Source: a virus
Lineage: Duplodnaviria; Caudoviricetes
IMG/VR virus record: IMGVR_UViG_3300011441_000012
Location: 1-56,858 of that record
Length of the DNA: 56,858 nucleotides
Strand: one strand, 5' to 3'
Shown: in pieces, positions 1 to 56,858 of the stretch
Layout: each line of letters begins with the position of its first letter
Position numbering within the stretch: the first letter of the stretch is position 1
Notes under the pieces: generated by a model
The model's input: the letters and a program-made list of their open reading frames with translations, nothing else
Told to the model about the DNA's origin: nothing
Database searches by the model: none
Program-made: the position numbers and the translations under genes

Positions 1-1980
1 GGGGGTTACGCCTTCACCCAGTTTGGATTCGGCTTGCGATTTTTCGGCTTCTTGCACAGCCTCCACTTCCGGTTTTTCAGTTCGTATCGCTTCACTTGGC
101 TTCCTTGGATTGTAAACATTCGCCGTGTTGTAGGTTCTCTCAACTCCATTCGCAGCCCTTACCGTGATTCTTGGATTCAGTTTGTAGTTTACGGTGGAAA
201 AATAATTCTCCGCTTTTACGAGAGTCCACGGAGAAGGCATGTCAGCCGGACCTCCAGCGAACCCGAGTTTAATTTGCTCTCCGGGTTTGATCGTGTTTCC
301 GTCAGCGTCGAGAAGCGAGCCTTCTTCTGTGGCTCGAATATGCGATGCGTGCTCCTGAGGTTTCACCTCCCCACCCCTGCCTTGGATTTGGGGAGGGGGT
401 TGGGATTTACCCTGCTTTTCAGCGTATGGTTTTAGCACCTCCCAATCCAGTGCGCCATTTGGAAGGTCGAAAATTCTAGGGTCTTGGCGAACTTTACGGC
501 GCTCCAAGTCAGTCATGTCAGCCCAAACTGACTCCCTCAGTTTTTCGTCTGGAGCCACCTTGGATTCAGCCACAGCCCTTAGCTCTTTCTGCTTCTTCAT
601 CGCTTCGTTGGCTGATGTAAAACGGTAGGAGTCGGCGGCGTTCGGCTCGTAACCAACAATGCGCTCTTTTCCGTATCGCGAAATCTCTTTGACGGGACGA
701 ATGCTCCCTTTGGCTATGGCTTCCTGAATTGTTATTCCGTGGGCGTCGAGAAATTCTTGTTCGGCGGGGAGGAGTTTTCGACTTCTTTTTTCTCCCGCGA
801 TAGCAGGAACTCCAACTGCCTTCGGTGCATCTCCAGCCGGGCGTGCGCTGGCTCCAGTAGCGACTTCGCCGCCAGCACGTTCTCCAGCAATTCTCCCAGC
901 GGTTGACTGCGATATATCGCGTCCACCCATTTTATCACTTCGGATAGGCTCTCCAGTTGTTGATCCAGTATCTCCAATTCGTGTTGCTTGTTCATTCGGT
1001 GGTCCTTTCACCTCCCCACCCTGCCTCTTTTCACCTGATTCTGTCAAGAGGGAAGTGGGTTGTTTCCGAATATCCGTGGTCGGGTCCACCGGCAAAGTCT
1101 CGCGCAAGCCGGATTCGGTTTGAGCGGGGGTGAGAGCCGCCGCCTCGCGTTGCGCCTCCTCGAAGGTGAACTCCTGCGGCTTGACCTCTCGCGCAACAGG
1201 CTCAATCTCACGGGTCACTGGAGCAATCCTGTCCTGCGGGGGCATCGTAGCCTCCAGCGCCCTCTGGTTCGCCAAGTCCAGCTTCGCATCCCCCTGTCGC
1301 AGGGTTTCAATCGCAGGCTCAACCTTCTTGTAACCGTGCTTGGCGGCTGCTCCAGCCCCTAGGAACGATCCAAAGGCAATCGCCGCGTCTTTGGAAGCCT
1401 TTCTCCAATCGGACTTCTGGAACGCATCCCAAGCCTCCTCGGCGCTCTGGAAGCCTGCCCGTAGCATGTCATACGTCCACTTGGCGTACACGGCAGGGGC
1501 AAGCGGTGTGGCTGCTAGTCCCATCTGAATCGCCCCCGGCCCTGACGTGAAGAAGTTAGCCACTCCACCGACCAATTCCTCCAAGCCTTCCAATCCCCCT
1601 GAAATCACCTTGGCGGGAGCGCTGGGAGCTTGCGGAACAATCGGTGGAGGCACTACCCCGCTGGTTTCGTAGTCGCTGGCAAAACGGGTTGCGTCCAGCC
1701 CTTGCTGAATCACTTCAGGAGTGATCCCAAGTTTCGGAAGTTCAACTCCGGGATGGGTTGCCACGTCGCCAAATCCTTCCTGAACGGATTCCCGGAACGT
1801 GGCGCGGGCAACGTCCATCTCAGGCAATGCTGCCCGTGGACCGCCGCGAGTGGTGGTTGTGAGGTCGGGAAGATTGCGAACGCTTGGGTCAGAGATATTC
1901 TCGAAAGAATCCTCCAGAGCCTCCTCAAACGTGAAAGTCTTGGGCGCTTCCTGAACCTCCTCGAAAGTGAAAGTTGGCAT
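1..1980 (-). CDS. Giant internal virion/ejection (polyvalent-type) protein, N-terminal part; runs off the left edge
   Basis: Absent from the ORF track. Manual translation from ATG 1980 (MPTFTFEEVQEAPKTFTFEEAL...) gives 660 open codons to position 1. It follows the other internal-protein genes and probably continues as 56858..53497. Confidence 0.8.
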   Translation of the reverse strand, partial: MPTFTFEEVQEAPKTFTFEEALEDSFENISDPSVRNLPDLTTTTRGGPRAALPEMDVARATFRESVQEGFGDVATHPGVELPKLGITPEVIQQGLDATRFASDYETSGVVPPPIVPQAPSAPAKVISGGLEGLEELVGGVANFFTSGPGAIQMGLAATPLAPAVYAKWTYDMLRAGFQSAEEAWDAFQKSDWRKASKDAAIAFGSFLGAGAAAKHGYKKVEPAIETLRQGDAKLDLANQRALEATMPPQDRIAPVTREIEPVAREVKPQEFTFEEAQREAAALTPAQTESGLRETLPVDPTTDIRKQPTSLLTESGEKRQGGEVKGPPNEQATRIGDTGSTTGEPIRSDKMGGRDISQSTAGRIAGERAGGEVATGASARPAGDAPKAVGVPAIAGEKRSRKLLPAEQEFLDAHGITIQEAIAKGSIRPVKEISRYGKERIVGYEPNAADSYRFTSANEAMKKQKELRAVAESKVAPDEKLRESVWADMTDLERRKVRQDPRIFDLPNGALDWEVLKPYAEKQGKSQPPPQIQGRGGEVKPQEHASHIRATEEGSLLDADGNTIKPGEQIKLGFAGGPADMPSPWTLVKAENYFSTVNYKLNPRITVRAANGVERTYNTANVYNPRKPSEAIRTEKPEVEAVQEAEKSQAESKLGEGVTP
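361..1026. repeat. Direct repeat pair TTTCACCTCCCCACCC(C)TGCCT at 361-382 and 1006-1026
   Basis: 16 nt are identical; the copies lie 645 nt (215 codons) apart and both encode GGEVK in the giant ORF. Confidence 0.85.
732..995 (-). CDS. Nested (overprinted) 87-aa helical/coiled-coil protein
   Basis: Leu/Glu-rich heptad-like sequence with GGAGGTGAAAGGA upstream and the TTGAC-N8-GTGAA motif 35 nt upstream. The host frame over this stretch is low-complexity G/A/T/R. Confidence 0.65.
   Translation of the reverse strand: MNKQHELEILDQQLESLSEVIKWVDAIYRSQPLGELLENVLAAKSLLEPAHARLEMHRRQLEFLLSREKKEVENSSPPNKNFSTPTE
1030..1047 (-). promoter_or_regulatory. TTGAC-N8-GTGAA motif, copy 1
   Basis: Minus strand reads TTGACagaatcagGTGAA. 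Confidence 0.75.
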
Positions 1981-11037: not shown

Positions 11038-11997
11038 TCAGTTCGTGTCAACGGTGTTGCTCGTCTCGATCATATACACCCCTCCATTGCCAGAGGTCTT
11101 GATGAACTCGAAAGTCTTGCCAGAAAAATCTCCCGTCCCAGAAACAGTGTCGCCATCAGCAACCGATGCGATGGGATGGCAGAACTGCCAGAAGCCTCGC
11201 ATCCATCCCCTCACGCTGCCTGCTGGAGCGGTGGTCGGGTCACCTATCCATACCTTTGACAAGTATAACCCTCCATCGGATGGATTGGGATATGGCAGCG
11301 TTCCCAGCAATCCTGTGGTTGATCCCCTGATATTTGAATTACCACTCTTTCCAGATGTAATTGAACCTCCAGTTCCAAGGTATGACCGTGAAAAAAAATT
11401 CCCTGATGGCGCGGTGGTCAAATCCGTTACCAGCACGTCCAGCTTGTCCACTGATGCTGTCGCACTGTTCTCAGTAATACGTGCGGCAATCATGCAGTTA
11501 TAGAGGTCGCTATTCACCACGGAGTAGAAATCTCCGAACATGAAGGCGTAGTAAGTTCCCGCAACTCCAACCGCGACCTCGCTCTTGGCGAATACATATA
11601 CGGTGCGGTCGTCCGCGAAAATCTTCCAATCTCGGGCTGTGCCGTCTGCGGCCACGCTCTTACGAACGAACAATCCATTGGCCATTTGCGCCACGGTTGG
11701 AAACGGTCCAGTTCCCGTGTTCACATCGCTCATGGTTTCGTAGCCGATAATTCGGGCTTCCTTTGCCGCGCCTGCTCCCGGTCCAGCATCGTTCACGCGC
11801 AGATAGAATCCTGATCCTGCGCCTTGGAGATAGGCTGCGAGGTCGGTGCCAGTGTAGGGCTTAGTCCACCCTGCCGCAGCCTTCGCTCCGTATCCGTTGA
11901 CGAGGCAACCGTCGAGAACGTCAATGAGTGAGCTTACGGTGCCGTCCCATACTGGGGCTGAACCATCGAGGTTTGAATATCGGGTAAATTGGGCCAT
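11038..11997 (-). CDS. Phage tail-fibre-associated structural protein
   Basis: LDGCLVNGYG..AAGWT and GFYLRVND motifs, familiar from phage tail proteins. Confidence 0.6.
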   Translation of the reverse strand: MAQFTRYSNLDGSAPVWDGTVSSLIDVLDGCLVNGYGAKAAAGWTKPYTGTDLAAYLQGAGSGFYLRVNDAGPGAGAAKEARIIGYETMSDVNTGTGPFPTVAQMANGLFVRKSVAADGTARDWKIFADDRTVYVFAKSEVAVGVAGTYYAFMFGDFYSVVNSDLYNCMIAARITENSATASVDKLDVLVTDLTTAPSGNFFSRSYLGTGGSITSGKSGNSNIRGSTTGLLGTLPYPNPSDGGLYLSKVWIGDPTTAPAGSVRGWMRGFWQFCHPIASVADGDTVSGTGDFSGKTFEFIKTSGNGGVYMIETSNTVDTN

Positions 11998-17069: not shown

Positions 17070-17326
17070 TTTGGTAGGGAATCCCACATCCTGAACAACA
17101 CCTCAACAATGGCTACCGCTGCCGCCACCGCTCCGCCGACCCATGCTGCGGTTCGCAGCGATTGGTCTTCTATCTTTCGGACTCGCCTGCTCAAGCCATT
17201 GTCTCCGTGAATATCTTCCTCATGCTTCAACACCAACGGTCCAATACCAATCTCTTTACCGTCTCCGGTAATAATGCCTTCAAGGTGTCGCACACGGGGT
17301 TCTAGTTGATGAGCTTCTTCACGCAT
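17066..17326 (-). CDS. Coiled-coil protein with C-terminal TM anchor
   Basis: GLSRRVRKIE coil followed by AAWVGGAVAAAVAIVEVLF. Confidence 0.55.
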   Translation of the reverse strand: MREEAHQLEPRVRHLEGIITGDGKEIGIGPLVLKHEEDIHGDNGLSRRVRKIEDQSLRTAAWVGGAVAAAVAIVEVLFRMWDSLPK

Positions 17327-17736
17327 AATGGTTCAAATAGTTCATTCAATGACTTTTCCAGAAAGCTTTTGCTTATGAGCCTGACGCATCCCTGCTCCAG
17401 CGCCTCTTGCAATCCCGGCCATTCAAGATGTCCGGTGCAAAGAAACACCCTCACCAAAGGCCACTTGCTTTTGATTTCCTTGTGAATAGTCAGCCCGTCT
17501 ATGTCGGGCAGTTTGATGTCCAGTAGAACCACATCGTAAGTCACCAACGAAAGAGCTTCCAAAGCCTGATTCCCGTTCTCCGCCTCGTTCATGTCGAGGT
17601 TGTAGAGCGAGAGTAGATCGCGTATCAGCAGCCGTGTTGCCGAATCATCCTCCACCACCAAGACGCGAACCTTCCGAGAGATACATATTTTTGCAATGTC
17701 TTCTCGTAGTTGCTGGAGTTTTAAGTCCTGTGTCAT
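17302..17736 (-). CDS. Single-domain response regulator (receiver, CheY-like)
   Basis: VLVVEDD, phospho-acceptor in VVLLDIKLPDIDG, conserved T (CTG) and K (ISK). Confidence 0.88.
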   Translation of the reverse strand: MTQDLKLQQLREDIAKICISRKVRVLVVEDDSATRLLIRDLLSLYNLDMNEAENGNQALEALSLVTYDVVLLDIKLPDIDGLTIHKEIKSKWPLVRVFLCTGHLEWPGLQEALEQGCVRLISKSFLEKSLNELFEPLCVKKLIN

Positions 17737-18870: not shown

Positions 18871-18996
18871 TCATTCCCCGTTCACTGTGTTTTCCCAGAC
18901 GCAAAGCAGGTATATTTCAATCGCCTCAGTCTGCGTGCCGTCCAAACACACAAAGCACTTCGCCAGGTTCGCTAGTTCTGAGGGTTCGCAGGTCAT
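18871..18996 (-). CDS. 41-aa single-module CxxC protein (MTCEPSELANLAKCFVCLDGTQTEAIEIYLLCVWENTVNGE)
   Basis: Manual translation, below the ORF-track cut-off; clearly paralogous to 20152..20433. Confidence 0.8.
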   Translation of the reverse strand: MTCEPSELANLAKCFVCLDGTQTEAIEIYLLCVWENTVNGE

Positions 18997-19385
18997 TTTC
19001 GGGAGTATTTACCGCCGAGACTCCGCCACTTTTTCAGGAATGTATTCCAAGTGTCGTAGAAAATATCGTTCACTTTTGCCGTTCCCAAGGCAACACCTTC
19101 GACAATCTCGACGGTGTAACCCGGCACAACCGCCGTGTAGTACGTGTTCCAAGCGTAGTCATCGAAGAACACCACCCAGCAAGGGCCGGTGTAATCAACC
19201 CCATTTATCGGTCGTGTGACTCCATTCGGCACCCACAAGTAGGCGTAAGCCGGTCCAACGGTGTAGCTCTGATCTTCGATGAACTCCACGAACGATCGCT
19301 CTCCGATGTTGTCGGAAGCGGTCAAGGTCGCCGCGTTGATCGTGAGGCTCACCGAGAGCAGTAGTAGTGCGAGTAGTGTTTTCAT
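18993..19385 (-). CDS. Secreted protein
   Basis: Sec signal MKTLLALLLLSVSLTINA. Confidence 0.6.
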   Translation of the reverse strand: MKTLLALLLLSVSLTINAATLTASDNIGERSFVEFIEDQSYTVGPAYAYLWVPNGVTRPINGVDYTGPCWVVFFDDYAWNTYYTAVVPGYTVEIVEGVALGTAKVNDIFYDTWNTFLKKWRSLGGKYSRK

Positions 19386-20155
19386 TAGTTCGTTGTGACA
19401 GTTACGCCGCGACCTATCAAGGTGGCTTTATCGGCAATTCCCTGCCCTGATGGGGCGGCATTGGTGCCACCGTTCAATAAAACTGTTCCGCTTACATACG
19501 ATGGTTCTGCAACCAATAGAGCTAGAACAGAATTTACCGTGGCGGCATTTAGGGCATTGTTATTCAACGTGTAATTTTTTCCATTGTCAGGAAACTCAGC
19601 TCCCAAATTTATGGTTGTAAGGCTTGTGTTGTTGGCGATTGTTATGTGGTCGAAAACATCCACCAAAGATGGAAAACTCAGCGAAGTTAGCGATGTGTTT
19701 CCGATAGAAAGAAAAGAATAACAAGTTTGAAGCGATGAGAAGTTCAGGCTCGTAATTAACGGACAGGTTTGTATGTATAATGGGCCGTTTATTTCCGTTG
19801 CACCGCTAATGTTAATCGTGGTTAGTGCTGCACAAGCCTGAAACCTAACTTGGCCATTCTGAAAATCCGCGTTTGGTGCCGAAAATGTAATCAGTTGGTC
19901 TGCGTCATTTACGAAGATAGATTGTGGTCCGATTTCAAAGCTAACCGCAGTTATGTTTTCGAGTGGCAGGTTTCCCCAGTCTTTCTCTGTTGCTAACACC
20001 ACTACATCCATGATGCTATTAGCTCTTGGAGTCCACAGCATCCCAGTATTCTGAACCTCCAGCGTCCAATCCCCAGGCGTCAGGCTGTTCGCCCGCCACA
20101 GGTTTCCGTTGGTGGTGTCCTTGTAAATCTGGCCTATGAAATCAGGGGTTATCAT
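19385..20155 (-). CDS. Virion appendage protein with LRR/receptor-L-like solenoid
   Basis: TPDFIGQIY.DT anchor motif, repeats such as LTSLSFPSL, C-terminal LIGRGVTVTTN; AT-rich. Confidence 0.65.
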   Translation of the reverse strand: MITPDFIGQIYKDTTNGNLWRANSLTPGDWTLEVQNTGMLWTPRANSIMDVVVLATEKDWGNLPLENITAVSFEIGPQSIFVNDADQLITFSAPNADFQNGQVRFQACAALTTINISGATEINGPLYIQTCPLITSLNFSSLQTCYSFLSIGNTSLTSLSFPSLVDVFDHITIANNTSLTTINLGAEFPDNGKNYTLNNNALNAATVNSVLALLVAEPSYVSGTVLLNGGTNAAPSGQGIADKATLIGRGVTVTTN

Positions 20156-20433
20156 GTTGGATCTCCTGCTCCTTCCACGTTTTCACATTCAACCACAGGT
20201 CCACTTCCCCCATTCGCCGCCTGACAGAGGAGGTAGGTGTTGACTAGCTTCTTTTGGTTTTCATCAAGGCAGACGAAGCACGCGGCCTCGGTGGCCAATG
20301 TCGCGGGATCGGTTGACCCTCCCGCAATCACGGCAAGCAGGTAAATCCTGATCGATTCCTTCTGCTCTCGGGTTAGGCAGGTGAAACACGCTGCCGCTTC
20401 GGCTAGGTCTGCTGGTTCGCAAGAAACGGCCAT
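20152..20433 (-). CDS. Two-module CxxC protein, putative decoration
   Basis: CEPADLAEAAACFTCL..IYLL and DPATLATEAACFVCL..TYLLC. Confidence 0.7.
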   Translation of the reverse strand: MAVSCEPADLAEAAACFTCLTREQKESIRIYLLAVIAGGSTDPATLATEAACFVCLDENQKKLVNTYLLCQAANGGSGPVVECENVEGAGDPT

Positions 20434-20467
20434 AAAATCAGTGGGGCGGATTCCGCCGCCCTTCGGG

Positions 20468-20845
20468 TTATGCTACGACAAGGGTTTCAAGGAGGTGGCA
20501 GAGCAGGAACACTTTCATGCGCTGCTTCTCGTCTTTTCCAATGCTGCACTGGTAGCACTTGATCGCATCCCGGATTTCAGCAATCGTCGGAGCGACTTCC
20601 AATGCACCCGTGTTCACCGCAGCATTGATTGCCACCTGGGCTTCAAACGAGTTCAGTCGGGTGCCGCCGACACACCAGCACACCACAGCTTCCCGAAGTG
20701 TGTTCAGGTTGGTGTAGTCGCCGCCGTCAGAGGCGTTCAGGGCTTGGGCGGTGTAGTAAATGAACGCATCGAGCTTTTCCGCATCGCTCAGACAGTTCAG
20801 ACAATTTGCATCGTCAATCAGTTGGTCGAGATCGCAAGCAGCCAT
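20468..20845 (-). CDS. Three-module CxxC protein, putative decoration
   Basis: CLNCL, CWCV and CYQCS units, ending VFLLC. Confidence 0.65.
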   Translation of the reverse strand: MAACDLDQLIDDANCLNCLSDAEKLDAFIYYTAQALNASDGGDYTNLNTLREAVVCWCVGGTRLNSFEAQVAINAAVNTGALEVAPTIAEIRDAIKCYQCSIGKDEKQRMKVFLLCHLLETLVVA

Positions 20846-20847
20846 AA

Positions 20848-21165
20848 TTACATTTCCTCCATCGCGTCAATTTCCATGTCGGCGCTCATTGGTTCAGTTT
20901 TGGTTTTGCCAGTGGTGATTTCCACCTCGGCCTCGTCATCGTAAAGCTTCACGATTTTCAAGGTCACGGTGTCGCCAATCTTGGCGTTCTTTCCGAGGGC
21001 AGACGTTGGAATCAGGGCCGTTGGATTGGCCGCTTCTTCTTCATCTACACTTTCGGGAGTTTCCTCGGTCGTCTCGGTTTCTTCAGCGACTTCCTCAGTG
21101 CCTTCGGGAGAGGAATAAAAGGCGTCCGACATTTCATCGGTTTCAGTTGTAGCTTCGGCTGTCAT
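20848..21165 (-). CDS. Very acidic protein downstream of capsid
   Basis: Glu/Thr-rich N-terminus and a KIGDTVTLKIV beta unit. Confidence 0.6.
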   Translation of the reverse strand: MTAEATTETDEMSDAFYSSPEGTEEVAEETETTEETPESVDEEEAANPTALIPTSALGKNAKIGDTVTLKIVKLYDDEAEVEITTGKTKTEPMSADMEIDAMEEM

Positions 21166-21239: not shown

Positions 21240-22793
21240 TTAAGCCTCAGTCCACGGCATACCGATGCTGTTGCACGCGGTGCCGGTGAGCGTGATGTTG
21301 GGGTTGGCATTCGCCCAAGTTCCCAACGCGCCGACTTTGGCGGTCAATTCCACAACCAGGTCCGCCAGCGTTGACGTACCGGTGATGGCCGCGTGAACAA
21401 TGGGAATGCCATTGCACTGAATCGAGTTGGCGATGATCTCGTAGGTGCCACCCGCAGAGAGAAGCGGGAGAACCGTGAGAACCACGTCTTCGGTCGGGCA
21501 GGCGTCGTTGGCCGAGGAGTAATCCTGAGCCGGATAGCCGGGGTCTGCCGAACAGGTCGGGAGATCAACCACACACGCGGGTTCGCGCAAGGTGAGGAAC
21601 AGTTCCGCGAACTCAGGGTACTTTGCCTGGGTCGCGTAGGAGAAGTCGGCAATAAACTTTCCCTTGTTCTGGCGCTCGTTGTTGACCGCAATCGGATTTC
21701 CGTTGTCGTCCACGCCGCAGGTCATGTTGTTCGTGACGAACTTCCACTTGCCACCGAAATCCCGCGCTCCGTAGCTCATCATCGGGTTGATGCTCGTGGT
21801 GTCGCGCACCAGCGAGGTCATGGCCTTGCGATGCCAGATGAAGTTGGCCTGATAATGGGCATTGATGAAGTCGTCATTGAGGACTTCCTTGATGCCTTCC
21901 GTCGCCGCCGTGTTGTTGTATGGGAACACGAGACGCAACTGATGCGTGCCATCGGCGTTCTGCGTTTGCAGGTCGAGGAAACGCAGGGGCATACAGTCCG
22001 CACGCATACCGTAGTTGCCGATCTTTCCAGTCCAGCCGTACTTGTAGTAATCGCTGCCGGCAGAATCGAAGTCTTTGAAGCGCCAGAACTCGCTCAACTG
22101 GCTGTTACCCTCGATCATGTCGTTGATGGACTCGGGATCATTCACGAACTCCAGCATGGGCGCGGAGTTCTTGTCAATGTCCTTGCCCAGTGCGCCGAGG
22201 AGCGTCTGAGGCATGACCCGGCGTTGCAGGTGGCGCGGGGACATCTTGGAAGTCGGCTTGGTGCTGACGTTCAGGATCGTGCCCGTGGAATCCCAATAAG
22301 CCGTGATCGCGGTGAGCGTGTTGTTCGCCGTGGCCCACTTCTGACCGGCAATGCGAACTGCTTCGTGGCGCAGGCGGTCGGAGTTGATAATCGTGGTCGA
22401 GCGCCGGAGCACTTCCACGAAGGCCGCATACTGTTGCTTGGCGCGGTCGGCGCTGAGAATCAAGTCCCAGCAGAAAATGGCAGTCTCGAAGGCTTTGCGC
22501 TGGAGGCGGTAGCTGTCCCGCGTGAAACCCATCCCGATGACTTTCGAGGAGGGATCGCAAGGGGTGCCCACGCAACCGGAGGCTTCGACGTTTTCCCACG
22601 CGCCGCTCAGGTCGGGGAAGACGTTTTCAAAACGGTCGAACGTATGTTCGACCCCCGCTTGAGTTGGAAATTGTCCAGTGGAGACGTGCCCGATCCACGT
22701 ATCGTAGGGGTGCAGGCTGCGAAGAATCTCGTCGTCCAGATGTTCTGACCGGCGACTCAGAAAGTCACCGAATTTTGTGCAAGGAATGGCCAT
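21240..22793 (-). CDS. Major capsid protein with C-terminal extension
   Basis: 517 aa; follows portal, scaffold and GroES; strong codon bias; own promoter and 3' hairpin. Confidence 0.8.
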   Translation of the reverse strand: MAIPCTKFGDFLSRRSEHLDDEILRSLHPYDTWIGHVSTGQFPTQAGVEHTFDRFENVFPDLSGAWENVEASGCVGTPCDPSSKVIGMGFTRDSYRLQRKAFETAIFCWDLILSADRAKQQYAAFVEVLRRSTTIINSDRLRHEAVRIAGQKWATANNTLTAITAYWDSTGTILNVSTKPTSKMSPRHLQRRVMPQTLLGALGKDIDKNSAPMLEFVNDPESINDMIEGNSQLSEFWRFKDFDSAGSDYYKYGWTGKIGNYGMRADCMPLRFLDLQTQNADGTHQLRLVFPYNNTAATEGIKEVLNDDFINAHYQANFIWHRKAMTSLVRDTTSINPMMSYGARDFGGKWKFVTNNMTCGVDDNGNPIAVNNERQNKGKFIADFSYATQAKYPEFAELFLTLREPACVVDLPTCSADPGYPAQDYSSANDACPTEDVVLTVLPLLSAGGTYEIIANSIQCNGIPIVHAAITGTSTLADLVVELTAKVGALGTWANANPNITLTGTACNSIGMPWTEA

Positions 22794-23053: not shown

Positions 23054-23082
23054 CTTATCGGTTGAGTTGTCTCGGTTGTCAA
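23054..23082 (-). promoter_or_regulatory. Sigma70-like promoter for capsid
   Basis: TTGACA-17nt-GATAAG. Confidence 0.5.
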
Positions 23083-23363
23083 CTGAGAACTGCAATTACA
23101 TCCGTCGCCTCCACCAATTTCATCCGATCCTTCGCCTCGTGAATCCAGCGTCCACGATGCGCGTTGACCACAACCCTATCGCCTCTTTTGAAATCGTAGG
23201 CTATGAGGTTGCCTTGCTTGTTCGGTTTCCAGAGTCCGAAGGTGACAACTTTCCCAGTCGTCGCCCGCTCCTGCGACTTCTCGGGAATGAGGATACCTCC
23301 GATTTGTTCCTCGGGGCGGTCCATACAGAGGAGGACTTGTCCGGCTAGGGGGCGGATTTTCAT
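23079..23363 (-). CDS. groES: Co-chaperonin GroES (Cpn10)
   Basis: MKIRPL..VL, GGILIPE mobile loop, GKVV..G, K.GDRV, DVIAVL. Confidence 0.9.
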   Translation of the reverse strand: MKIRPLAGQVLLCMDRPEEQIGGILIPEKSQERATTGKVVTFGLWKPNKQGNLIAYDFKRGDRVVVNAHRGRWIHEAKDRMKLVEATDVIAVLS

Positions 23364-24712
23364 CCCTTAAACTGCCTTTCCAGCGCGTCGAGTTCTTGGT
23401 CCGCCGTGAGTTCACCCTTCACCGCGCTACCACCGTCCGCAGCGCGTGCGCCATCAGGTCCGCTCGCCTCGTAATCCTTGAGTGACTTCTCCAATTCAGC
23501 CACGCGGGCCAGTAGCCCCTTGTTTTGATGCGCCAATCGGTCGTGGTTCGCCGCCTTGTTACGCACGATGCTGTGGAGCTTCACAATCTGCTCCTGCGTG
23601 AACGGTTTCTTGGAGTTGATCGCCTCCTGAAACGCCTTGGGCAGCATGGCGATTTTCTCAGGGCTGATGTCCTGCGGGAACATTGCCAAGTCAGCCAGAG
23701 CCGATCCCCGGTCGAACAGGGTGTTGCCTTCGTTGTCGCCTTCCACCTTGTTGAACCAGTTGGGATACTTGGTGGCGAGAGCCTCGTTTGTCTGCCGCCA
23801 CAGTTTGGCGCGGTTCTGCTGGAATTGCTGCTGCTGCTCCTCACGGGTCTTGGCAAACGTCTCCGCGTCCTGCTTCGCTTTCGCCTTGGCAGCCTGCGTC
23901 TGCTCGAATAGGTGGCTGATCTGGTTGATGTGGCGCTTCACTTCCTCCTTATCCTCGGGGAACAGGCGGTTGATTTCCGTGCGCCGCGCTGCCGGCTCAA
24001 GGCTGGCGAAGTATTGCAAGTCAGCTTGTGTAACTTCTCGGGTTACAGATTCTCCGGTCTTCGGGTCTTCCACGGTCATGGACAGACCTTTGAGTTCCCG
24101 GATCGCGTTGCTCCACGCCTGCTCGTAGGGTTTCCAGTACTTTTCCTGGTAATCTGCGTCCAGTTCGTAGTCCTTGAACTTGATCGCCGCTTCGAGTTCC
24201 TGATTGCGCTTCTCAATCGCGGCTACGCGCTCTTGATTCGCCTTGTCGAGTTGCGGGGTGGTCGCTTCGAGTTCCTGAACCTTTTTCTCAAGGGTGGTCA
24301 GCTTTTGGAGCTTGGGTTCGTACTCCTCCTTGACCTTTTTCTTGAGGGAGTCGTAGGCGGTTCGGAGTTCGGCGGCTTTGACGGGGGGCTTTTCATCTGG
24401 CTTCTTGCCATCGTCCTTGGGCGCAGGGGGAACAATGGAGTCGTCCTCCAAGTTCGTAGAGGAGGCGTCGTCCTTCTCCGCAGGCTTCGCAGCGGTAGGG
24501 TTTTGGTCATCCTTCTTCGCCTCCTTTTTCGGTGCGGGTTTTCCAGACTCCATCGTGTCCAGTTCCGCGAAGGCGTCGGCGTAGGCGTCCTGAGAATCAG
24601 GAGTGGATGGTGGCGTTGGCGCTGCCGGTTTCGCATTGGGCGATGGCGCGGGTGCGGCCTTCGGTGCGCTGGTTGTTGGTGCCGGTGGTGGGGCGGTAGG
24701 GGCTGCTGGCAT
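23360..24712 (-). CDS. Capsid scaffolding protein
   Basis: Pro/Ala/Lys/Glu-rich coiled coil between portal and capsid. Confidence 0.7.
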   Translation of the reverse strand: MPAAPTAPPPAPTTSAPKAAPAPSPNAKPAAPTPPSTPDSQDAYADAFAELDTMESGKPAPKKEAKKDDQNPTAAKPAEKDDASSTNLEDDSIVPPAPKDDGKKPDEKPPVKAAELRTAYDSLKKKVKEEYEPKLQKLTTLEKKVQELEATTPQLDKANQERVAAIEKRNQELEAAIKFKDYELDADYQEKYWKPYEQAWSNAIRELKGLSMTVEDPKTGESVTREVTQADLQYFASLEPAARRTEINRLFPEDKEEVKRHINQISHLFEQTQAAKAKAKQDAETFAKTREEQQQQFQQNRAKLWRQTNEALATKYPNWFNKVEGDNEGNTLFDRGSALADLAMFPQDISPEKIAMLPKAFQEAINSKKPFTQEQIVKLHSIVRNKAANHDRLAHQNKGLLARVAELEKSLKDYEASGPDGARAADGGSAVKGELTADQELDALERQFKG

Positions 24713-28703: not shown

Positions 28704-29795
28704 TTAATACCAATTTTTCCCATCCGATCCGGGCACAATATGAAACGCCAAGTTCTGGCGGTATTTGATGCACTGCTTGCAGAATGAATGTCCCGTGCGT
28801 TGCTCCACCATCTGCTCCGCCGTTGTGTCCATGAAATCTCCAACCGTTATTCTTCGGTCGGCAACGCAAGCGCACATCGAGGTTTTACCGTCATGCCGGA
28901 TGAACGTGAACATTCCGCCAGCACCCACTGGGCACACTTCCTGAATCGGGATATGCGCGTAAATCTCCCGCCCTTTCCTTGGGGAAACAAACAACCTGTC
29001 CATCGTGTCCTCCCATTGCTGAGACACTGGAGGCAGAATCGCATTCCAATCCGGCCTGCCTTCCTGAACCTCGAACGGGGTAGCCTCGGGATCGTGCTTG
29101 CGGCAATACTGAACCGCGTTCTCCATTGAGATCGCCCGCGCAAAGCTCGTGAAGAATCCTATGCCGCAGCTTTCCGCGTAGGCTTTCATTGCGTCAACCT
29201 CGTGGGCGTTGTCGTTGTACACGTGATAATTCACAAGGATGGTCACGCGCTTATCCTTCGGTCGCGCCTTGTTAGCGTCCCCGATGATTTTCATGTTCTC
29301 CTTCACCTTCTCGATGTTCCCGCCTTGATGACCCTTCACATACACTTCCTGCGTGAATCCTGATAGGCTGATGATGATGAGGTCAGGTCCGGCCTCCAGC
29401 AATTCTTCCACGCGCTGGACGTGGTTGAGGTTGGTGGACATCTCGGGGTGCAGCCCTCGGGACTTTATAGCGGTGATGACCTCGGGTAGCTTGGGATGCA
29501 CGAACGGTTCGGAGTTTCCATAGGTGAACACGATGGCGTTTGGATTCTCGGCTTTGATCTTGTCAAGAATGCGCTCCATCAAATCCCAATCCATCAAGCC
29601 GTTTAGGTGATCGTATTTCTTTCCGTCAATTTCTTCGCGGTTGCCTTTGGTGCAGGTTGGGCACTTCAGGGTGCAGGCCGAATTCACCTCCAGGAACACT
29701 CTCCAGTGCGGGGTCTTGGTGACTGCCTCTGTGATCGCGCCACTGATGAACGGCTTGGAGGCAAGCCCGTATTTTGCTTTGAGCTCAGGTGTCAT
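28704..29795 (-). CDS. Radical SAM enzyme with C-terminal SPASM/twitch-like Cys domain
   Basis: CTLKCPTC (CxxxCxxC), SEPFVHP, STN motifs; C-terminal C...CAC...CKQC. Confidence 0.9.
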   Translation of the reverse strand: MTPELKAKYGLASKPFISGAITEAVTKTPHWRVFLEVNSACTLKCPTCTKGNREEIDGKKYDHLNGLMDWDLMERILDKIKAENPNAIVFTYGNSEPFVHPKLPEVITAIKSRGLHPEMSTNLNHVQRVEELLEAGPDLIIISLSGFTQEVYVKGHQGGNIEKVKENMKIIGDANKARPKDKRVTILVNYHVYNDNAHEVDAMKAYAESCGIGFFTSFARAISMENAVQYCRKHDPEATPFEVQEGRPDWNAILPPVSQQWEDTMDRLFVSPRKGREIYAHIPIQEVCPVGAGGMFTFIRHDGKTSMCACVADRRITVGDFMDTTAEQMVEQRTGHSFCKQCIKYRQNLAFHIVPGSDGKNWY

Positions 29796-29798
29796 TGG

Positions 29799-30302
29799 CT
29801 AGGTTAGCACAGTTGGGAAGTTAAGTTTTGCGAATTCTCCGAATAACACTGAAGCCTTTTTGTCGTAAGCCCTGCCAGCGGATTCCTCGTCATTAAAAGC
29901 CCCGATGTATATGGATTTTCTGTTGTTCACCAATCGAGCTATCCACTTTTCGTCTCTTATGTGCCAATAAACGCCCTTAAACCTGCTGCTAAGACCCGGC
30001 TCTTTTCTTCTGTTTCTCACATTCTCAGTCGCAGAGCACGGCCTTAGATTTGAACGCTGATTGTTTAGCCCATCCCCATCCCTGTGGTCGAACAGAGTGT
30101 CCGGTGAAAATCCAAGTCGAATCATTATTTCCCTGTGCATGTACATAGTTTCACCGGATGGTCCGACAGTATGGAGCGCATACCATCTCTCAATCCCAGT
30201 GGGGCATGTCCTCGTCGCCCTCCAGCTTAACTTTTCAACCCAGTCAAAGTCACTATCGTCAACGAGTGCAATCTTGCCTCTGGTTAATTCAATCGTTTTC
30301 AT
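29799..30302 (-). CDS. HNH-AP2 homing endonuclease
   Basis: ALVDD.D, YMHR, DHRDGDGLNNQRSNLR, SRFKGV, AGRAYD...FGEFA.LNF. Confidence 0.92.
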   Translation of the reverse strand: MKTIELTRGKIALVDDSDFDWVEKLSWRATRTCPTGIERWYALHTVGPSGETMYMHREIMIRLGFSPDTLFDHRDGDGLNNQRSNLRPCSATENVRNRRKEPGLSSRFKGVYWHIRDEKWIARLVNNRKSIYIGAFNDEESAGRAYDKKASVLFGEFAKLNFPTVLT

Positions 30303-30304
30303 AA

Positions 30305-30988
30305 TCAGTGTTCGATTGATGTCGGCTTCCAGCCGTGGTGGTAATCTTTTATTTTTGGGAGTCTTGGACCAAACCCGATAAAACATTCCGCTTCATACCG
30401 CGACTCAATGGACTTGATCCCTGATTTCTTGATCCTATCCCGGCGCGTCATGCTCGGCAGAGTCCGTAGAAAGTTGGATTGTGAGAAGTGGAAATTTCCC
30501 GCCCAGATGCTTTGAGTTCCGTCAGCCTGATTGGTCATCCAGTGGCAACCTACCGACTCATACCCCGCCTCAAGGTCTTCAATGCAACGCCACCATTCTT
30601 TGATGACGTGGCGCATCATGCAATTTCGCCAGTTGATTCCGTGCTCAGTCTGTTCCTCCCTCGAAGCACCCTTCGCGTGGAAGTACAACACGTTCCAACC
30701 GGGATGACTCAGCGCAAACTCGTGCATCGCGCAGATCGTCAGGTTTTCGTTTCTGCAATCCAAGCCGTGCATCATTATTTCCGCCTTGGGTGGTATCACC
30801 AAGTTCGCAATCTCGCGGCTCGCCTCTCCGCCGTTAATTCCTACCACGAACTTGGATGCTGTATCCAGCAAGCCTGAAGCGCGGAGTTGCACCATCTGCT
30901 CGTGGACAATGTTGACAGCTTGCGGTAGGACTTCGGGAGGGTTGCCCAACTCGAACAGGCAATGGAAATAAATCGCAATGGGCTTCAT
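30305..30988 (-). CDS. Glycosyltransferase-like protein
   Basis: ENLTI, VLYFHAKG, WR..M, AGNF, RYEAE.FIG motifs. Confidence 0.6.
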   Translation of the reverse strand: MKPIAIYFHCLFELGNPPEVLPQAVNIVHEQMVQLRASGLLDTASKFVVGINGGEASREIANLVIPPKAEIMMHGLDCRNENLTICAMHEFALSHPGWNVLYFHAKGASREEQTEHGINWRNCMMRHVIKEWWRCIEDLEAGYESVGCHWMTNQADGTQSIWAGNFHFSQSNFLRTLPSMTRRDRIKKSGIKSIESRYEAECFIGFGPRLPKIKDYHHGWKPTSIEH

Positions 30989-53496: not shown

Positions 53497-56400
53497 CTAT
53501 CTTTGCTTTTCTCTCTCCTCGTAAGTAGAAACGCCCGCACCAAAAGTCGCCAGAACTTGAATGATTGCCCCCTCGGTCATTCCGCGATCCCGCATCACTG
53601 CAATGATCTCTTGGACCGACAATGGCACTGGCACCCACGCTGCCGCCGCATCTCCAACAGTCACTCTCACCTTGCTCGCAGGCTTTCCAGAATCAATGGC
53701 GGCGATAGCCGTCTTAACTATGGCGGCAACGTCTGGTCTAGCCTTGTTCTTGAAGAAATTCCAAATGACCTCCCCAGTTCCAAAATCCGAAATGTCCCTT
53801 TCCTTTCCAGAGATTCCGGTTGTAATCCCCTTGGCGATCCTTGAACTAGATACGATAGGTTGCTGAAATCCAGCCCACGGATCAATGCGCGTGTCCCCGC
53901 GTACCACCTTTCCGAAATCGCTAGAGGTAGAATCAGACTCTCTTTTGTCTGAAAACAGACGGCTCACCGAATACAAGGCGACAATGGAAAGAATCCATCG
54001 GACATATTCCTTGGCCGCAATCTTTCTGGCGCGACCACTGCCGGCCCATTCTGCTGCTCCCCATAGCGGCTGACCACTCAACGCCTGAAGCCGGCTGGCC
54101 AACAGGCTTGGCGACCAGAGTAATTCCCCTGTCACCTTGGCCACGCCTCGATTAAGATTACCTCGCCCCGTGGAGATGTTGACCAGATTTCCGATCACCT
54201 TCAAATCCGCTGCGGTCGGCGGCCTATCCTTGAAATTAACCTCCAGTAGATAGTCCGCCAGATTGGCGCGGGCGGAGTTTAGGAATGTGATGAATGCTCG
54301 GTTGCTCATTCGCACTCCTTTGGCTCCGGCTTTTGGAATCGCAGTAACCCCCGTCTTGATTGCGCTTCCGGTTCTCATAGGAACTTCCGCCCATTCGTCC
54401 AGAATGGAATGCGCCCGGTCCTCCCATTTGGTAAAGTCCGTCGTCTTGAGTTCGGTGTACTGAATCCCCATCTGCTTATCTGCGCCACTTTTTGCATTTG
54501 GCCGGTTCGTGCGCCACTGCTCAATGCCATTCGCCACTGACTCGCTTTTCATGGCCTGATACATCTTCACGAAAGGATCACCCATAAGCCTCTTGGCGCT
54601 GGACGGGTTGGTGATGGCACGGCTCAGATTCGCCAGTAAGTAAAGAAACGCCTGTCTTGGGGCTGACAAGTCGAACGATGACAGAAGATTCACGAATGCG
54701 TCCTTACCCTGCCTGATTCCGTGCCACACCTTCTGCATTCGGCTGCGCTTCGCCATGTTGTCCAGATACAAACCATGCTTCCATTTATGCTTGATGGATT
54801 CCACCTCTCCAAGCAAACGCATGGCTTTTGCATCGCCTGAAATATCCAGCGGAGGCTTGCGGGTTCTGGGTCGAAAATCCCCACGGGCTAACTTTCCGCT
54901 CCAATATTCCAATTCCCGCGACAGTGCCGCCGTCTTGGCTTTCAAGGCTGTCACCGCAGGATCGCGCTCTGGCTTTGGCTGGAGTGCGTCCCTCGCCCAC
55001 TCTCTTTCCGCCTTGAGCGCGGCGATGGTCTGCCTATTCGCCTCCAGCTTTGCGCTGGTCAACTTCAAAGGCTGTTTGGATTTCGGGAAAATTTCTCCGG
55101 TTTCTTTTTGCCGTTCCAATACTGCGATCTGACGGGTGGTCGAGCGTTCCGCCAGTTCCACGCGCTGCAAGTCGGTCAACCCTGGTGTTTCAAAAATCGA
55201 ATCCCGATCTGCCTTGGTCTGCTTGTATTCCTGCCGCAGCGCCTCTAGCTCAAGATCAGTTGGAGCAGGGGTTTTGGATTTAACGATTTTCTCTCGCGTC
55301 TTTATTTCGTGCCGCAAATCTGCCAGCCGGTTGCGATAGTAGGTCTTTTGAGAATCCAACACTGATGCCAGATGCTTCGCCATGTCCGTCACTACCACGC
55401 CGAACTTTCGTTTCAGTTCATTCAACCGCTGAACCTCCCGCCGTGCCGCATCGCTCAATGGCCTGCGCTGGAGCCCAGTGGGCGGTAGCGGCTTTCTGGC
55501 TTCCACATCCATTTGATGCCCCATCAATCGGATTTGGGTTTTCAAATCGGCCACCTTTGCGGAAATTACATCCTCGCTTGGCAGTGTATATTTGCCACGG
55601 GTTGAGATGGCGTCCATTGCCTCCAGTCTGGTGATCTCTGGAATGAAGGCTTTTAGGATGCCCTGCACCTCGTTAATCAAGGCTTCACGATCTATCTTGG
55701 GGTCGCGCTCCACGATGGCCCGAACCAGTTTTTGCACGTCCGACGCCACCGCATCCAATTCCCCCTTTTTCACCTTGGCTTCGATGCTACTTGTCGCCAA
55801 ATCAATCTTCTCGGCGGCATCTCGCTTCTTGACCACCCGCTTTACCGCTTCCGCTTCCGGTGCAGTCTTTACAAACCCGGCGAGCCGTTCATCTACCATC
55901 GCGTTGCTCGCCTTAAAAATTTCATCCAAGTGCGGCTTTATCCATTCTCCAACGTCACGCACCATCGCGTCCGCCCACTTGACTGAATCCACAAGCCCGC
56001 GAGTAATCTTTGAGGCTCCGTAAATCGAAAGGTCTATCAACTCCACAGGGTCCACGCCCGCCCCGCGACCCATTATGCCTTTTTCCGCTGCCGCCTGACG
56101 CGCCTTGATTCTAGCTAGAGCGGAACTTCCCAACTCATCCATGTAGAGCGAGAACTTCTCTGCGTATTGAAGCACTTTAGGCGAGTATTGTGGCGCGGCT
56201 TTAGACTCCGCCAGTGCTCGGGCAATTTCCGCATCCACCAACTCGCGCCCCTTCTGCTCCAGTTGCGCCTCAAACTCCTTCAGTTTGGCTTGGTAGGCAT
56301 CATGGGTTTTCTGAATCTCAACCCGCTCCGCATCCGTGATCGGCCTCCAGTCGTTCGCCTCCCGTTTCTGCATCTCCAGAGCCGCAAGGCTGTAATCCTC

Positions 56401-56858
56401 GTTCAGCAATCTTTGCCGGGCTTGGCCGGCGCGACCCCACTCTGTCCCTGCCAGCTTGGTGATCTCCGATAGCTCCTTAATTTGGTTGCTCCAGTGCTGT
56501 GCGCGTTCTCCAGCCTCCTTGACCGCATCCATGCGCCCGTCGTCATAAGCCTGAGCCGCCTCTCGGGTCGCCTTTGCGTGTTCCACTTTCAGGTCCACCA
56601 GACGATGATCTAGAGCGAATACTTCCTCATCGGTGAGTTGCCGCGTCTTTTTTTTCAGATCAGCTATAAGCACATCCTGCCACGCCGGGTCCAAGTCAAT
56701 TTTCGCCATTACGCGATCCCACAGCGCTTGATTGCTCTGTCGCTGGGCCTCCAAAAGCCCCGGCATCCCAAGCCGAGCCAATTCCTTTTCCATCGCGGCA
56801 TTTTTGATTCCCGTGGCGGTTTGGAGATTGGGTTTGTACTCGGCTGGGACTGCGCCAC
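53497..56858 (-). CDS. Giant internal virion protein, C-terminal part (open at the right edge)
   Basis: Frame is open upstream of ATG 56793 to the edge; long helical protein with SSDFGK..G.TR.D..AG motif. Confidence 0.8.
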   Translation of the reverse strand, partial: GAVPAEYKPNLQTATGIKNAAMEKELARLGMPGLLEAQRQSNQALWDRVMAKIDLDPAWQDVLIADLKKKTRQLTDEEVFALDHRLVDLKVEHAKATREAAQAYDDGRMDAVKEAGERAQHWSNQIKELSEITKLAGTEWGRAGQARQRLLNEDYSLAALEMQKREANDWRPITDAERVEIQKTHDAYQAKLKEFEAQLEQKGRELVDAEIARALAESKAAPQYSPKVLQYAEKFSLYMDELGSSALARIKARQAAAEKGIMGRGAGVDPVELIDLSIYGASKITRGLVDSVKWADAMVRDVGEWIKPHLDEIFKASNAMVDERLAGFVKTAPEAEAVKRVVKKRDAAEKIDLATSSIEAKVKKGELDAVASDVQKLVRAIVERDPKIDREALINEVQGILKAFIPEITRLEAMDAISTRGKYTLPSEDVISAKVADLKTQIRLMGHQMDVEARKPLPPTGLQRRPLSDAARREVQRLNELKRKFGVVVTDMAKHLASVLDSQKTYYRNRLADLRHEIKTREKIVKSKTPAPTDLELEALRQEYKQTKADRDSIFETPGLTDLQRVELAERSTTRQIAVLERQKETGEIFPKSKQPLKLTSAKLEANRQTIAALKAEREWARDALQPKPERDPAVTALKAKTAALSRELEYWSGKLARGDFRPRTRKPPLDISGDAKAMRLLGEVESIKHKWKHGLYLDNMAKRSRMQKVWHGIRQGKDAFVNLLSSFDLSAPRQAFLYLLANLSRAITNPSSAKRLMGDPFVKMYQAMKSESVANGIEQWRTNRPNAKSGADKQMGIQYTELKTTDFTKWEDRAHSILDEWAEVPMRTGSAIKTGVTAIPKAGAKGVRMSNRAFITFLNSARANLADYLLEVNFKDRPPTAADLKVIGNLVNISTGRGNLNRGVAKVTGELLWSPSLLASRLQALSGQPLWGAAEWAGSGRARKIAAKEYVRWILSIVALYSVSRLFSDKRESDSTSSDFGKVVRGDTRIDPWAGFQQPIVSSSRIAKGITTGISGKERDISDFGTGEVIWNFFKNKARPDVAAIVKTAIAAIDSGKPASKVRVTVGDAAAAWVPVPLSVQEIIAVMRDRGMTEGAIIQVLATFGAGVSTYEEREKQR

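Follow-up and report, generated by a model that had tools for sequence, protein, structure and literature searches.

Among the small proteins that decorate phage capsids, the trimeric cement proteins gpD of lambda and Soc of T4 are homotrimers of beta-rich subunits. A different kind joins a small binding part to a displayed domain: in Agrobacterium phage Milano, according to the published account, LP1 (gp16) consists of an N-terminal anchor and an immunoglobulin-like (Ig) domain, LP2 (gp128), of 38 amino acids (aa), is a paralogue of the LP1 anchor alone, and both are found at quasi-equivalent sites of the capsid and form disulfide bonds in the particle (PMC10491603). [quoted passage not shown] Here we analyze three closely spaced genes of an uncultured tailed virus (Duplodnaviria; Caudoviricetes), IMG/VR record IMGVR_UViG_3300011441_000012, whose complete sequence of 56,858 nucleotides (56.9 kb) we refer to as the window. 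These genes carry a helical hairpin module of about 35 residues in three, two and one copies, and we propose, with about even confidence, that the modules anchor surface-display proteins on the capsid.

A small anchor with a displayed domain and bare paralogues is a kind of system that is already known, and the likeness to Milano is that a short protein is a bare paralogue of a longer protein's anchor and that only some sites carry an appendage. The 41-aa chain of the window and bare one-module open reading frames (ORFs) of related viral loci (designated by L numbers; here L006/L007, L008 and L015) align with the N-terminal module of 250-625-aa proteins, as LP2 does with LP1. In Milano, however, the anchor is not a helical hairpin but an extended strand at the N-terminus, bonded to a minor capsid protein with a jellyroll fold, the Milano proteins are not reported to have tandem arrays or a swap between linker and cysteine pair, both of which the module genes have, and capsid location, which was shown for Milano, is here suggested by the genes. 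The two-part plan of a helical anchor and a displayed domain is shared with pb10, but that protein has one helical domain and is not reported to have repeated Cys-pair hairpins or bare paralogues, while the binding part of Hoc is C-terminal and single, whereas the modules are N-terminal, repeated one to five times and sometimes split across genes. The likeness to gpD and Soc, a three-part unit at a capsid site encoded next to the capsid gene, was the idea of a preliminary description of the window made from its letters alone; the difference is that the model of the 125-aa window protein is all-helical and that the parts are repeats in one chain or across two chains. No beta-rich subunit of the gpD/Soc type was seen, the 125-aa model being all-helical and the prediction for the 93-aa protein showing helices only. 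The module profiles gave no sequence match to LP1 or LP2 among PDB chains, assuming that the Milano capsid model is among those chains, nor to the N-terminal domain of pb10 in the PDB searches, and pb10 is absent from the 50 listed matches of the 125-aa model in the VIA fold search, in which helical models have a high background and a shared fold is possible. In full-text literature searches and in the family and structure libraries searched, we found no description of the anchor module, of its one- to fivefold repetition, or of its spread over genes with a Cys pair in place of a linker.

Results

One hairpin module in three, two and one copies

The three module ORFs lie on the minus strand, at the coordinates that the preliminary description had given, and are tightly packed, with ATGA stop/start overlaps at 20152-20155 and 18993-18996. 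The features concerned are as follows, with E denoting the expectation value of a match and HMM a hidden Markov model.

20468-20845, minus strand: single-chain three-module protein, 125 aa, divergent subfamily; modules at about residues 4-38, 45-80 and 86-120
20152-20433, minus strand: two-module protein, 93 aa, with a 20-residue linker-like tail
20323-20427, minus strand: module 1 of the 93-aa protein, residues 3-37; domain E 4.8e-19; Cys pattern CCCA
20215-20319, minus strand: module 2 of the 93-aa protein, residues 39-73; domain E 2e-17; Cys pattern TCCC
18871-18996, minus strand: bare one-module protein, 41 aa, with C3, C14, C17 and C32; HMM E 3.4e-16

The module HMM has 35 positions and was built from both halves of 54 database homologues of the 93-aa protein (E ≤ 0.01, among 66 candidates; mostly 74-76 aa long and made of the two similar halves only), with no window sequence included, and it was run on all 1,376 six-frame ORFs of the window of at least 25 aa. 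It matches the 93-aa ORF with an E of 7.3e-36 as two full modules, the 41-aa ORF as one full module, and the 125-aa ORF with an E of 7.4e-6, where modules 1 and 3 are weak (0.021 and 0.017) and the middle one is undetected (3e+02); the best unrelated ORF of the window reaches an E of 0.39. The internal duplication is real, since an HMM of the first half alone matches the second half with a domain E of 4e-12. For the 125-aa protein, segment profiles drawn from 30 close homologues were compared with the canonical module by hhalign, which gave probabilities of 94.7%, 86.0% and 95.1% for segments a, b and c (E 6e-8, 5e-6 and 3e-8), and segments b and c match each other with a profile-profile probability of 96.4%.

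We conclude from these profile matches that the three genes carry one homologous module of about 35 residues, predicted to form a helical hairpin. The count of three, two and one copies in the preliminary description is borne out by the HMM and, for the middle copy of the 125-aa protein, by profile-profile comparison and the AlphaFold model. The motif proposed with it holds as a real repeat pattern, although the middle module of the window's 125-aa protein has C-W-C rather than CxxC, and the CxxC itself is widely kept but has its second Cys replaced in many family members. Pfam, PHROGs and NCBIfam hold no match to the module or to the 125-aa protein; helical repeat families (tetratricopeptide repeats and the like) gave no match in these libraries nor by Foldseek in PDB and BFVD at E ≤ 0.001, and module profiles A1 and A4 returned only chance rows (E 0.11-1.3) from all PDB chain sequences, with no phage protein among them.

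The 125-aa protein has 30 database homologues at 57-98% identity, in which C4, C15, C97 and C116 are nearly invariant, and more distant members of the subfamily in L001, L002 and L012 have CxxC in all three modules, including the middle one. Modeling of the three-copy monomer, as the preliminary description had proposed, gives a confident result (42-sequence alignment), with a predicted local distance difference test (pLDDT) score of 91.2 and a predicted template modeling score of 0.79: the chain is all-helical and forms three hairpins, with helices at residues 6-18/21-38, 47-54/62-78 and 88-99/104-124. In L025 and L026, metagenome loci of near-identical phages whose partial capsid proteins are 96% and 94% identical to that of the window, the 125-aa protein is 98.4% and 97.6% identical, compared with 85-92% for the other module genes there. 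The idea that this chain is an interchangeable filler of the same site as the shorter chains did not hold; the protein belongs instead to a separate, divergent and highly conserved subfamily. Foldseek found no match to the model in PDB or in BFVD at E ≤ 0.001, the best VIA match (Z 6.6 over 66 residues) lies below the background stated for helical proteins, and the ESM Atlas held no usable match, its own model of the protein being poor (pLDDT 0.43).

The module family in other phages

An alignment of close homologues recovered 22 viral-contig loci, mostly on contigs of 51-57 kb. The module chains in this set take several forms: a divergent three-module subfamily of 112-140 aa; a bare two-module protein of about 75 aa; a bare one-module ORF; five-module proteins, two each in L014, L016 and L018; and a one- or two-module N-terminus followed by a Gly/Pro-rich linker and 60-590 further residues, the module forming the N-terminus of 250-625-aa proteins in the 22 loci. 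The search of metagenomes with a module HMM, also suggested earlier, did find a family: among 1.84 billion cluster representatives, a one-module profile (A5, 23 sequences) has 2,504 matches with E ≤ 1e-3, of which 877 reach E ≤ 1e-10. The 148 best-scoring newly fetched proteins contain two modules in 68 cases, three in 15, four in 28 and five in 37, and none has more; this list favors multi-module chains because it is ranked by score.

Pfam domains (E ≤ 1e-4) were found in 22 of the 86 proteins of at least 200 aa among these, in every case in the C-terminal part, and comprise fn3 (10), Laminin_G_3 (8), He_PIG/Ig_3 (3) and LRR_4/LRR_5 (5), with some proteins carrying two. Fibre, collagen and tailspike families are absent from the Pfam scan of the 86 long homologues, and a shorter homologue, P0034 (P numbers designate database homologues), has a K1-lyase_C domain. 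Arrays of one to five modules are thus probably, judging from domain content, the N-terminal anchor of adhesin-like surface proteins on the virus particle.

Within two phages, L004 and L008 (module genes at about 6.6-8.4 kb), every module replaces the second Cys of the CxxC in the same way, by K in L004 and by G in L008, and this uniformity points to concerted evolution or co-adaptation of the paralogues.

A peptide linker or a pair of cysteines

Cysteines were read from modules aligned to the HMM at four positions, namely the first Cys, the CxxC pair and the last Cys (in YLLC), over the 93-aa homologues, the matches of the one-module profile, the viral loci and the window, with L007 and L020 left out as duplicates of L006 and L019. 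One-module chains have the pattern C-C-C-C and two-module chains CCCA followed by TCCC. In the 93-aa protein, module 1 accordingly has the first Cys and the CxxC with Ala at the position of the last Cys, and module 2 has Thr at the position of the first Cys, then the CxxC and YLLC. Along a chain, five-module chains included, the first module alone retains the first Cys and the last module alone the last Cys.

The junctions between modules follow this closely. Counted over related sequences, 230 of 282 internal junctions have neither flanking Cys, and the spacing is 7 residues in 188 of these; 51 have both, with a spacing of 10-12 residues in 38; a single junction has one flanking Cys, at a spacing of 7 residues. 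The tight 7-residue linker is of the type YLLA-VIAGGS-T/L-DP, and the Cys-pair boundary of the type YLLC ... x-C-D/E-P. At the chain ends, both terminal cysteines are present in 194 of the 208 chains with both ends covered (of 260 in all, 52 not covered), neither in 8 and one in 6; all three module chains of L022 are without either. These counts show, at the level of aligned sequences, that the two cysteines flanking a boundary, the last of one unit and the first of the following unit, are gained and lost together, and that they are present precisely at the boundaries that lack the tight linker. The modules, arranged head to tail, are connected by a 7-residue Cys-free linker or else meet at a chain break or longer linker with a Cys pair on its flanks, and peptide link and Cys pair are therefore interchangeable means of marking or holding a unit boundary.

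A split gene with a variable appendage

Two further features describe how the appendage, which resembles leucine-rich repeat (LRR) proteins, is encoded in the window.

20152-20175, minus strand: split-gene junction, a Shine-Dalgarno-like AGGAG followed by the ATG of the 256-aa gene, which overlaps the TGA of the 93-aa gene
19385-20155, minus strand: LRR-like appendage protein, 256 aa, the C-terminal part split off from the two-module protein

A single ORF in L026 (357 codons) and in L025 (337 codons) joins the two-module part, with 86-92% identity to that of the window, in frame to an LRR-like domain, so the 93-aa and 256-aa genes are one fused gene in close relatives. The fused LRR-like domain is 35.8% identical to the window protein over 260 aa in L026 (whole protein) and 27.5% identical over 240 aa in L025, which makes the appendage the most variable part, at 27-36% identity between phages with 94-98% identical neighboring genes. 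The 256-aa protein itself matches LRR_5 with 16 bits (E 0.012), below the Pfam gathering cut-off of 27.7 bits, and the homologous appendages of L006, L011 and L025 score 30.4, 27.2 and 24.1 bits. In L006 and L007 the homologous regions follow a one-module anchor.

The 24 nucleotides of the junction, including AGGAG, are identical in the window and L001, while the two-module proteins are only about 53% identical, and database homologues P0001, P0003 and P0004 end at the same residues as the 93-aa protein. We read this junction as a conserved gene split with translational coupling. A programmed -1 frameshift joining the two frames was rejected, because the open overlap contains no slippery heptamer and the 24 nucleotides read as a Shine-Dalgarno sequence and ATG; an assembly error was rejected because the junction recurs in L001.

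A short Trp-rich motif (W-x-Y/W-N ... W-x-x-I) after a Gly-rich linker ends some module proteins (the tail of the 93-aa protein at 20152-20211, minus strand; P0015, P0031 and P0054; L008:8113-8415 and L015:7347-7745) and also opens the 256-aa protein of the window; perhaps it forms a small domain at the appendage base.

The one-module gene and its possible two-module partner

The 41-aa ORF, of a length that gene callers usually miss, has a database homologue of the same length (P0233, 36 of 41 residues identical) and is found with unchanged length in L025 (88% identity) and L026 (85%), where it stands directly 3' of the two-module-LRR gene. Relative to these two loci, 8 codons differ synonymously and 5-6 non-synonymously, with amino-acid changes only at residues 2, 10, 20, 21, 23 and 24, which places them at the N-terminus and within or close to the loop. 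L006/L007, L008 and L015 likewise have bare one-module ORFs, 39-42 codons long. By this pattern of conservation the 41-aa ORF is a real gene, as the preliminary description had supposed, and under the capsid-display reading discussed below it becomes a predicted structural protein.

By inspection, a separate two-module gene is present in 15 loci, and 14 of them encode a one-module chain nearby; in the exception, L002, the contig ends 229 nucleotides further on. Natural three-module fusions exist in both orders, with the one-module unit first in P0124, P0139, P0159, P0125, L005 and L010 and the two-module unit first in P0108, P0196, P0133 and P0129, and each retains the Cys pair at the fused boundary. 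Modeled alone, the two-module chain gives a poor model (pLDDT 57.5, four helices, 50-sequence alignment), compared with 91.2 for the three-module chain. The idea that two and one modules make three is plausible because two- and one-module chains co-occur and are fused in both orders, and a partnership of the 93-aa and 41-aa chains is predicted on this basis. The chain that carries the appendage is the two-module one in the window, L001, L025 and L026 and the one-module one in L003, L011, L013 and L019, the other partner being bare in each case. This fits the earlier suggestion that only some sites carry an appendage, since it is found on one partner and bare copies coexist with it.

Position next to the capsid gene

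Two genes upstream of the module genes bear on where their products act.

21240-22793, minus strand: major capsid protein, 517 aa, HK97-type core at about residues 8-405 and a C-terminal extension
20848-21165, minus strand: 105-aa acidic companion protein between capsid and module genes, with BLASTP homologues

The minus strand carries all genes from 14 to 42 kb, and the transcription order is 450-aa gene, GroES-like gene, 517-aa gene, 105-aa gene, 125-aa gene, 93-aa gene, 256-aa gene, 130-aa gene and 41-aa ORF, followed 3' by small genes and then by large structural genes from 16080 downwards. A candidate scaffold gene occupies 23360-24712. In the ESM Atlas the 517-aa protein has a feature score of 0.96 against coat-protein clusters, and its structure (residues ~8-405) aligns to Phage_capsid_4/Phage_capsid_3 clusters with template modeling scores of 0.47-0.50 by query and 0.72-0.80 by target; it has no Pfam or PHROG match, and a PDB sequence search with capsid profile A6 gave only chance rows. 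The modeled fold thus resembles HK97-type capsid proteins, and the placement of the module genes downstream of a capsid gene in the preliminary description was right.

A homologue of this protein is encoded 5' of the module genes in 22 of 22 viral loci and in L025 and L026, and the order of capsid gene, small gene (often recognizably acidic) and module genes is the same in all of them, at capsid identities of 21-66% in the 22 loci and 94-96% in L025/L026. The capsid protein as sole query gave no viral-contig locus. The 105-aa protein, without a family match in Pfam, PHROG or NCBIfam, has BLASTP homologues at the same position in L001, L002, L003, L004, L012, L016, L018, L022, L025 and L026.

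Three cysteines of the capsid protein (C74, C414 and C432) do not vary among 16 homologues that are 21-66% identical to the window protein, two of them in the C-terminal extension past the HK97-like core; judging from this conservation they are candidates for disulfides inside the shell or to module proteins.

Several other genes of the window were noted. A GroES-like co-chaperonin (23079-23363, minus strand; Cpn10, E 8.5e-14; phrog_3188) lies directly 5' of the capsid gene and is kept at that position in several related loci. The gene at 18993-19385 (minus strand), flanked by the LRR gene and the 41-aa ORF, encodes a 130-aa protein whose N-terminus resembles a signal peptide; a scan of metagenomes found no relative, and it looks like an inserted accessory gene because no homologue was detected in L025/L026, where the 41-aa ORF directly follows the fused gene. 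A stand-alone response-regulator receiver protein (17302-17736, minus strand; Response_reg, E 1.4e-22) stands between the module genes and the large structural genes. The block 5' of the head genes contains a radical-SAM protein (28704-29795, minus strand; E 1e-11) and, adjoining it, an HNH endonuclease (29799-30386, minus strand) whose AP2-domain match is weak (30.9 bits against a cut-off of 33.3). At the ends of the record, an ORF starting at 1980 (1-1980, minus strand) leaves on the left and an ORF with an open 5' end (53497-56856, minus strand; stop at 53497) enters from the right, both without Pfam or PHROG match; if the record is circularly permuted and the end frames join, the result would be a single gene of about 1,779 codons.

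Discussion

The reading that we prefer, and to which we give about an even chance, is that the modules are the anchoring and assembly part of surface-display proteins, with the 125-aa protein and the 93-aa and 41-aa chains together forming three-hairpin units on the capsid that display the LRR domain. The 125-aa protein would be a self-contained three-hairpin domain, and the 93-aa chain, with two hairpins, and the 41-aa chain, with one, would build an equivalent unit. After lysis, Cys pairs would turn into disulfides, which would either link successive chains, end to start, or close a unit on itself. The units would be placed next to the major capsid protein on the surface of the capsid and display a variable LRR domain (in the window, the product of the split-off 256-aa gene) for adhesion to host or environmental surfaces, and bare copies would leave sites without an appendage. 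The capsid surface is the most likely location of the predicted module proteins because their genes always follow the capsid gene, because the appended domains are monomeric, as on Hoc, pb10 and Milano LP1, and because Milano offers a precedent.

The pseudo-trimeric decoration system that the preliminary description proposed is supported in part, by the module homology, the three-hairpin fold of the 125-aa protein and the co-occurrence of two- and one-module chains, but three is no general closure number. Among the related loci and the 148 best-scoring proteins, a module total per phage that is a multiple of three was rejected as a general rule, and surplus module chains in L015 and L022 weigh against a strict rule of three.

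A serious rival, though we consider it unlikely, takes the modules away from the capsid and makes them docking domains for appendages of the tail or neck: a bare multi-module protein would act as adaptor on the tail, and one-module N-termini would plug variable receptor-binding domains into it. Such an arrangement would suit an appendage that is hypervariable between near-identical phages, the K1-lyase_C domain of P0034, which is known from a tailspike-type enzyme, and the two alternative one-module appendage proteins that accompany one bare two-module protein in L003, L011 and L021; a resemblance of single hairpins to polyketide-synthase docking domains is weak, with a Z of 3.0 that corresponds to noise. 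It is harder to reconcile with genes whose constant place is the head module, immediately following the capsid gene, and that are separated by a block of small genes from recognizable tail genes (phrog_9600 tail assembly, 11038-11997), and with appended domains of monomeric adhesin types, none of the 86 long homologues having a fibre, collagen or tailspike family.

Somewhat more doubtful is that each chain is an independent, self-closing mini-domain with its own first and last Cys bonded, so that the one-, two- and three-module proteins do not assemble together but bind singly as small cement proteins, or serve different roles. Self-closure accounts for the Cys data no less well than bonding across a junction does, and the near-invariant C4 and C116 of the 125-aa family are compatible with both; the N- and C-termini of a hairpin lie at the same end, such that a 41-aa chain could staple itself, and the 125-aa chain folds alone with high confidence in AlphaFold. 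Yet the two-module chain alone was modeled poorly despite a 50-sequence alignment, one- and two-module units are fused in both orders, and five-module chains would require a ten-helix ring.

That the modules are small metal-binding (CxxC) regulatory or intracellular proteins and no component of the particle is very improbable. The CxxC pair is the most widely kept feature of the broad family, and the 93-aa protein has a weak RING-type match (zf-C3HC4_4, E 0.018), but at 15.6 bits against a cut-off of 30 this does not identify a RING/C3HC4 zinc finger, and the second Cys is replaced in many members and throughout whole phages (K in L004, G in L008). The fusion to FN3, lectin, Ig and LRR domains is typical of extracellular display, and the position in the head gene block is fixed. 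Weakest of all, and scarcely credible to us, is that the 41-aa ORF is the decaying remnant of a duplicated module from which no protein is made: it is very short, has no obvious ribosome-binding site and has one database homologue of similar length only, but its length and frame are kept in L025, L026 and P0233 at 85-88% identity with the confined substitutions described above, its start codon and the preceding stop codon overlap, it retains all four Cys, and equivalent bare modules exist in L006/L007, L008 and L015.

Several observations weigh against the display of appendages by three-hairpin units on the capsid. A hypervariable appendage is equally typical of tail receptor-binding proteins, and the LRR protein of the window is a chain of its own. 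The Cys statistics count related sequences rather than independent events, they fit a cross-junction disulfide (or a shared ligand site) and self-closure of a unit equally, and terminal Cys are entirely missing from many arrays in the wider family. Four- and five-module arrays are common (28 and 37 of the 148 best-scoring proteins), so that a three-module unit is at best a local rule. Neither GenBank phage records, searched for the capsid, 93-aa and 602-aa proteins, nor GTDB genomes gave a match, and hence no cultured relative and no bacterial genome was found to place beside this virus.

A bolder extension of the capsid-display reading, which we put forward tentatively and think improbable as it stands, is that the hairpins close into disulfide-stapled, pseudo-symmetric rings in which the number of modules equals the symmetry of the capsid site, three here, as one chain or as two plus one, and five in phages such as L014, L016 and L018. 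Splitting and fusing repeats across genes would then set exactly one or no appendage per symmetric site, with the Cys pair replacing the missing peptide bond, and would in this manner resolve the symmetry mismatch.

If the capsid-display reading is true, the module would represent a widespread, undescribed anchor system for phage surface display, and would offer a way to study how adhesins are displayed by uncultured environmental phages. A module of 35-41 residues would also be a small, possibly self-ligating tag for attaching cargo to phage particles. That one structural unit could be encoded as one, two or perhaps three genes would be an unusual evolutionary rule.

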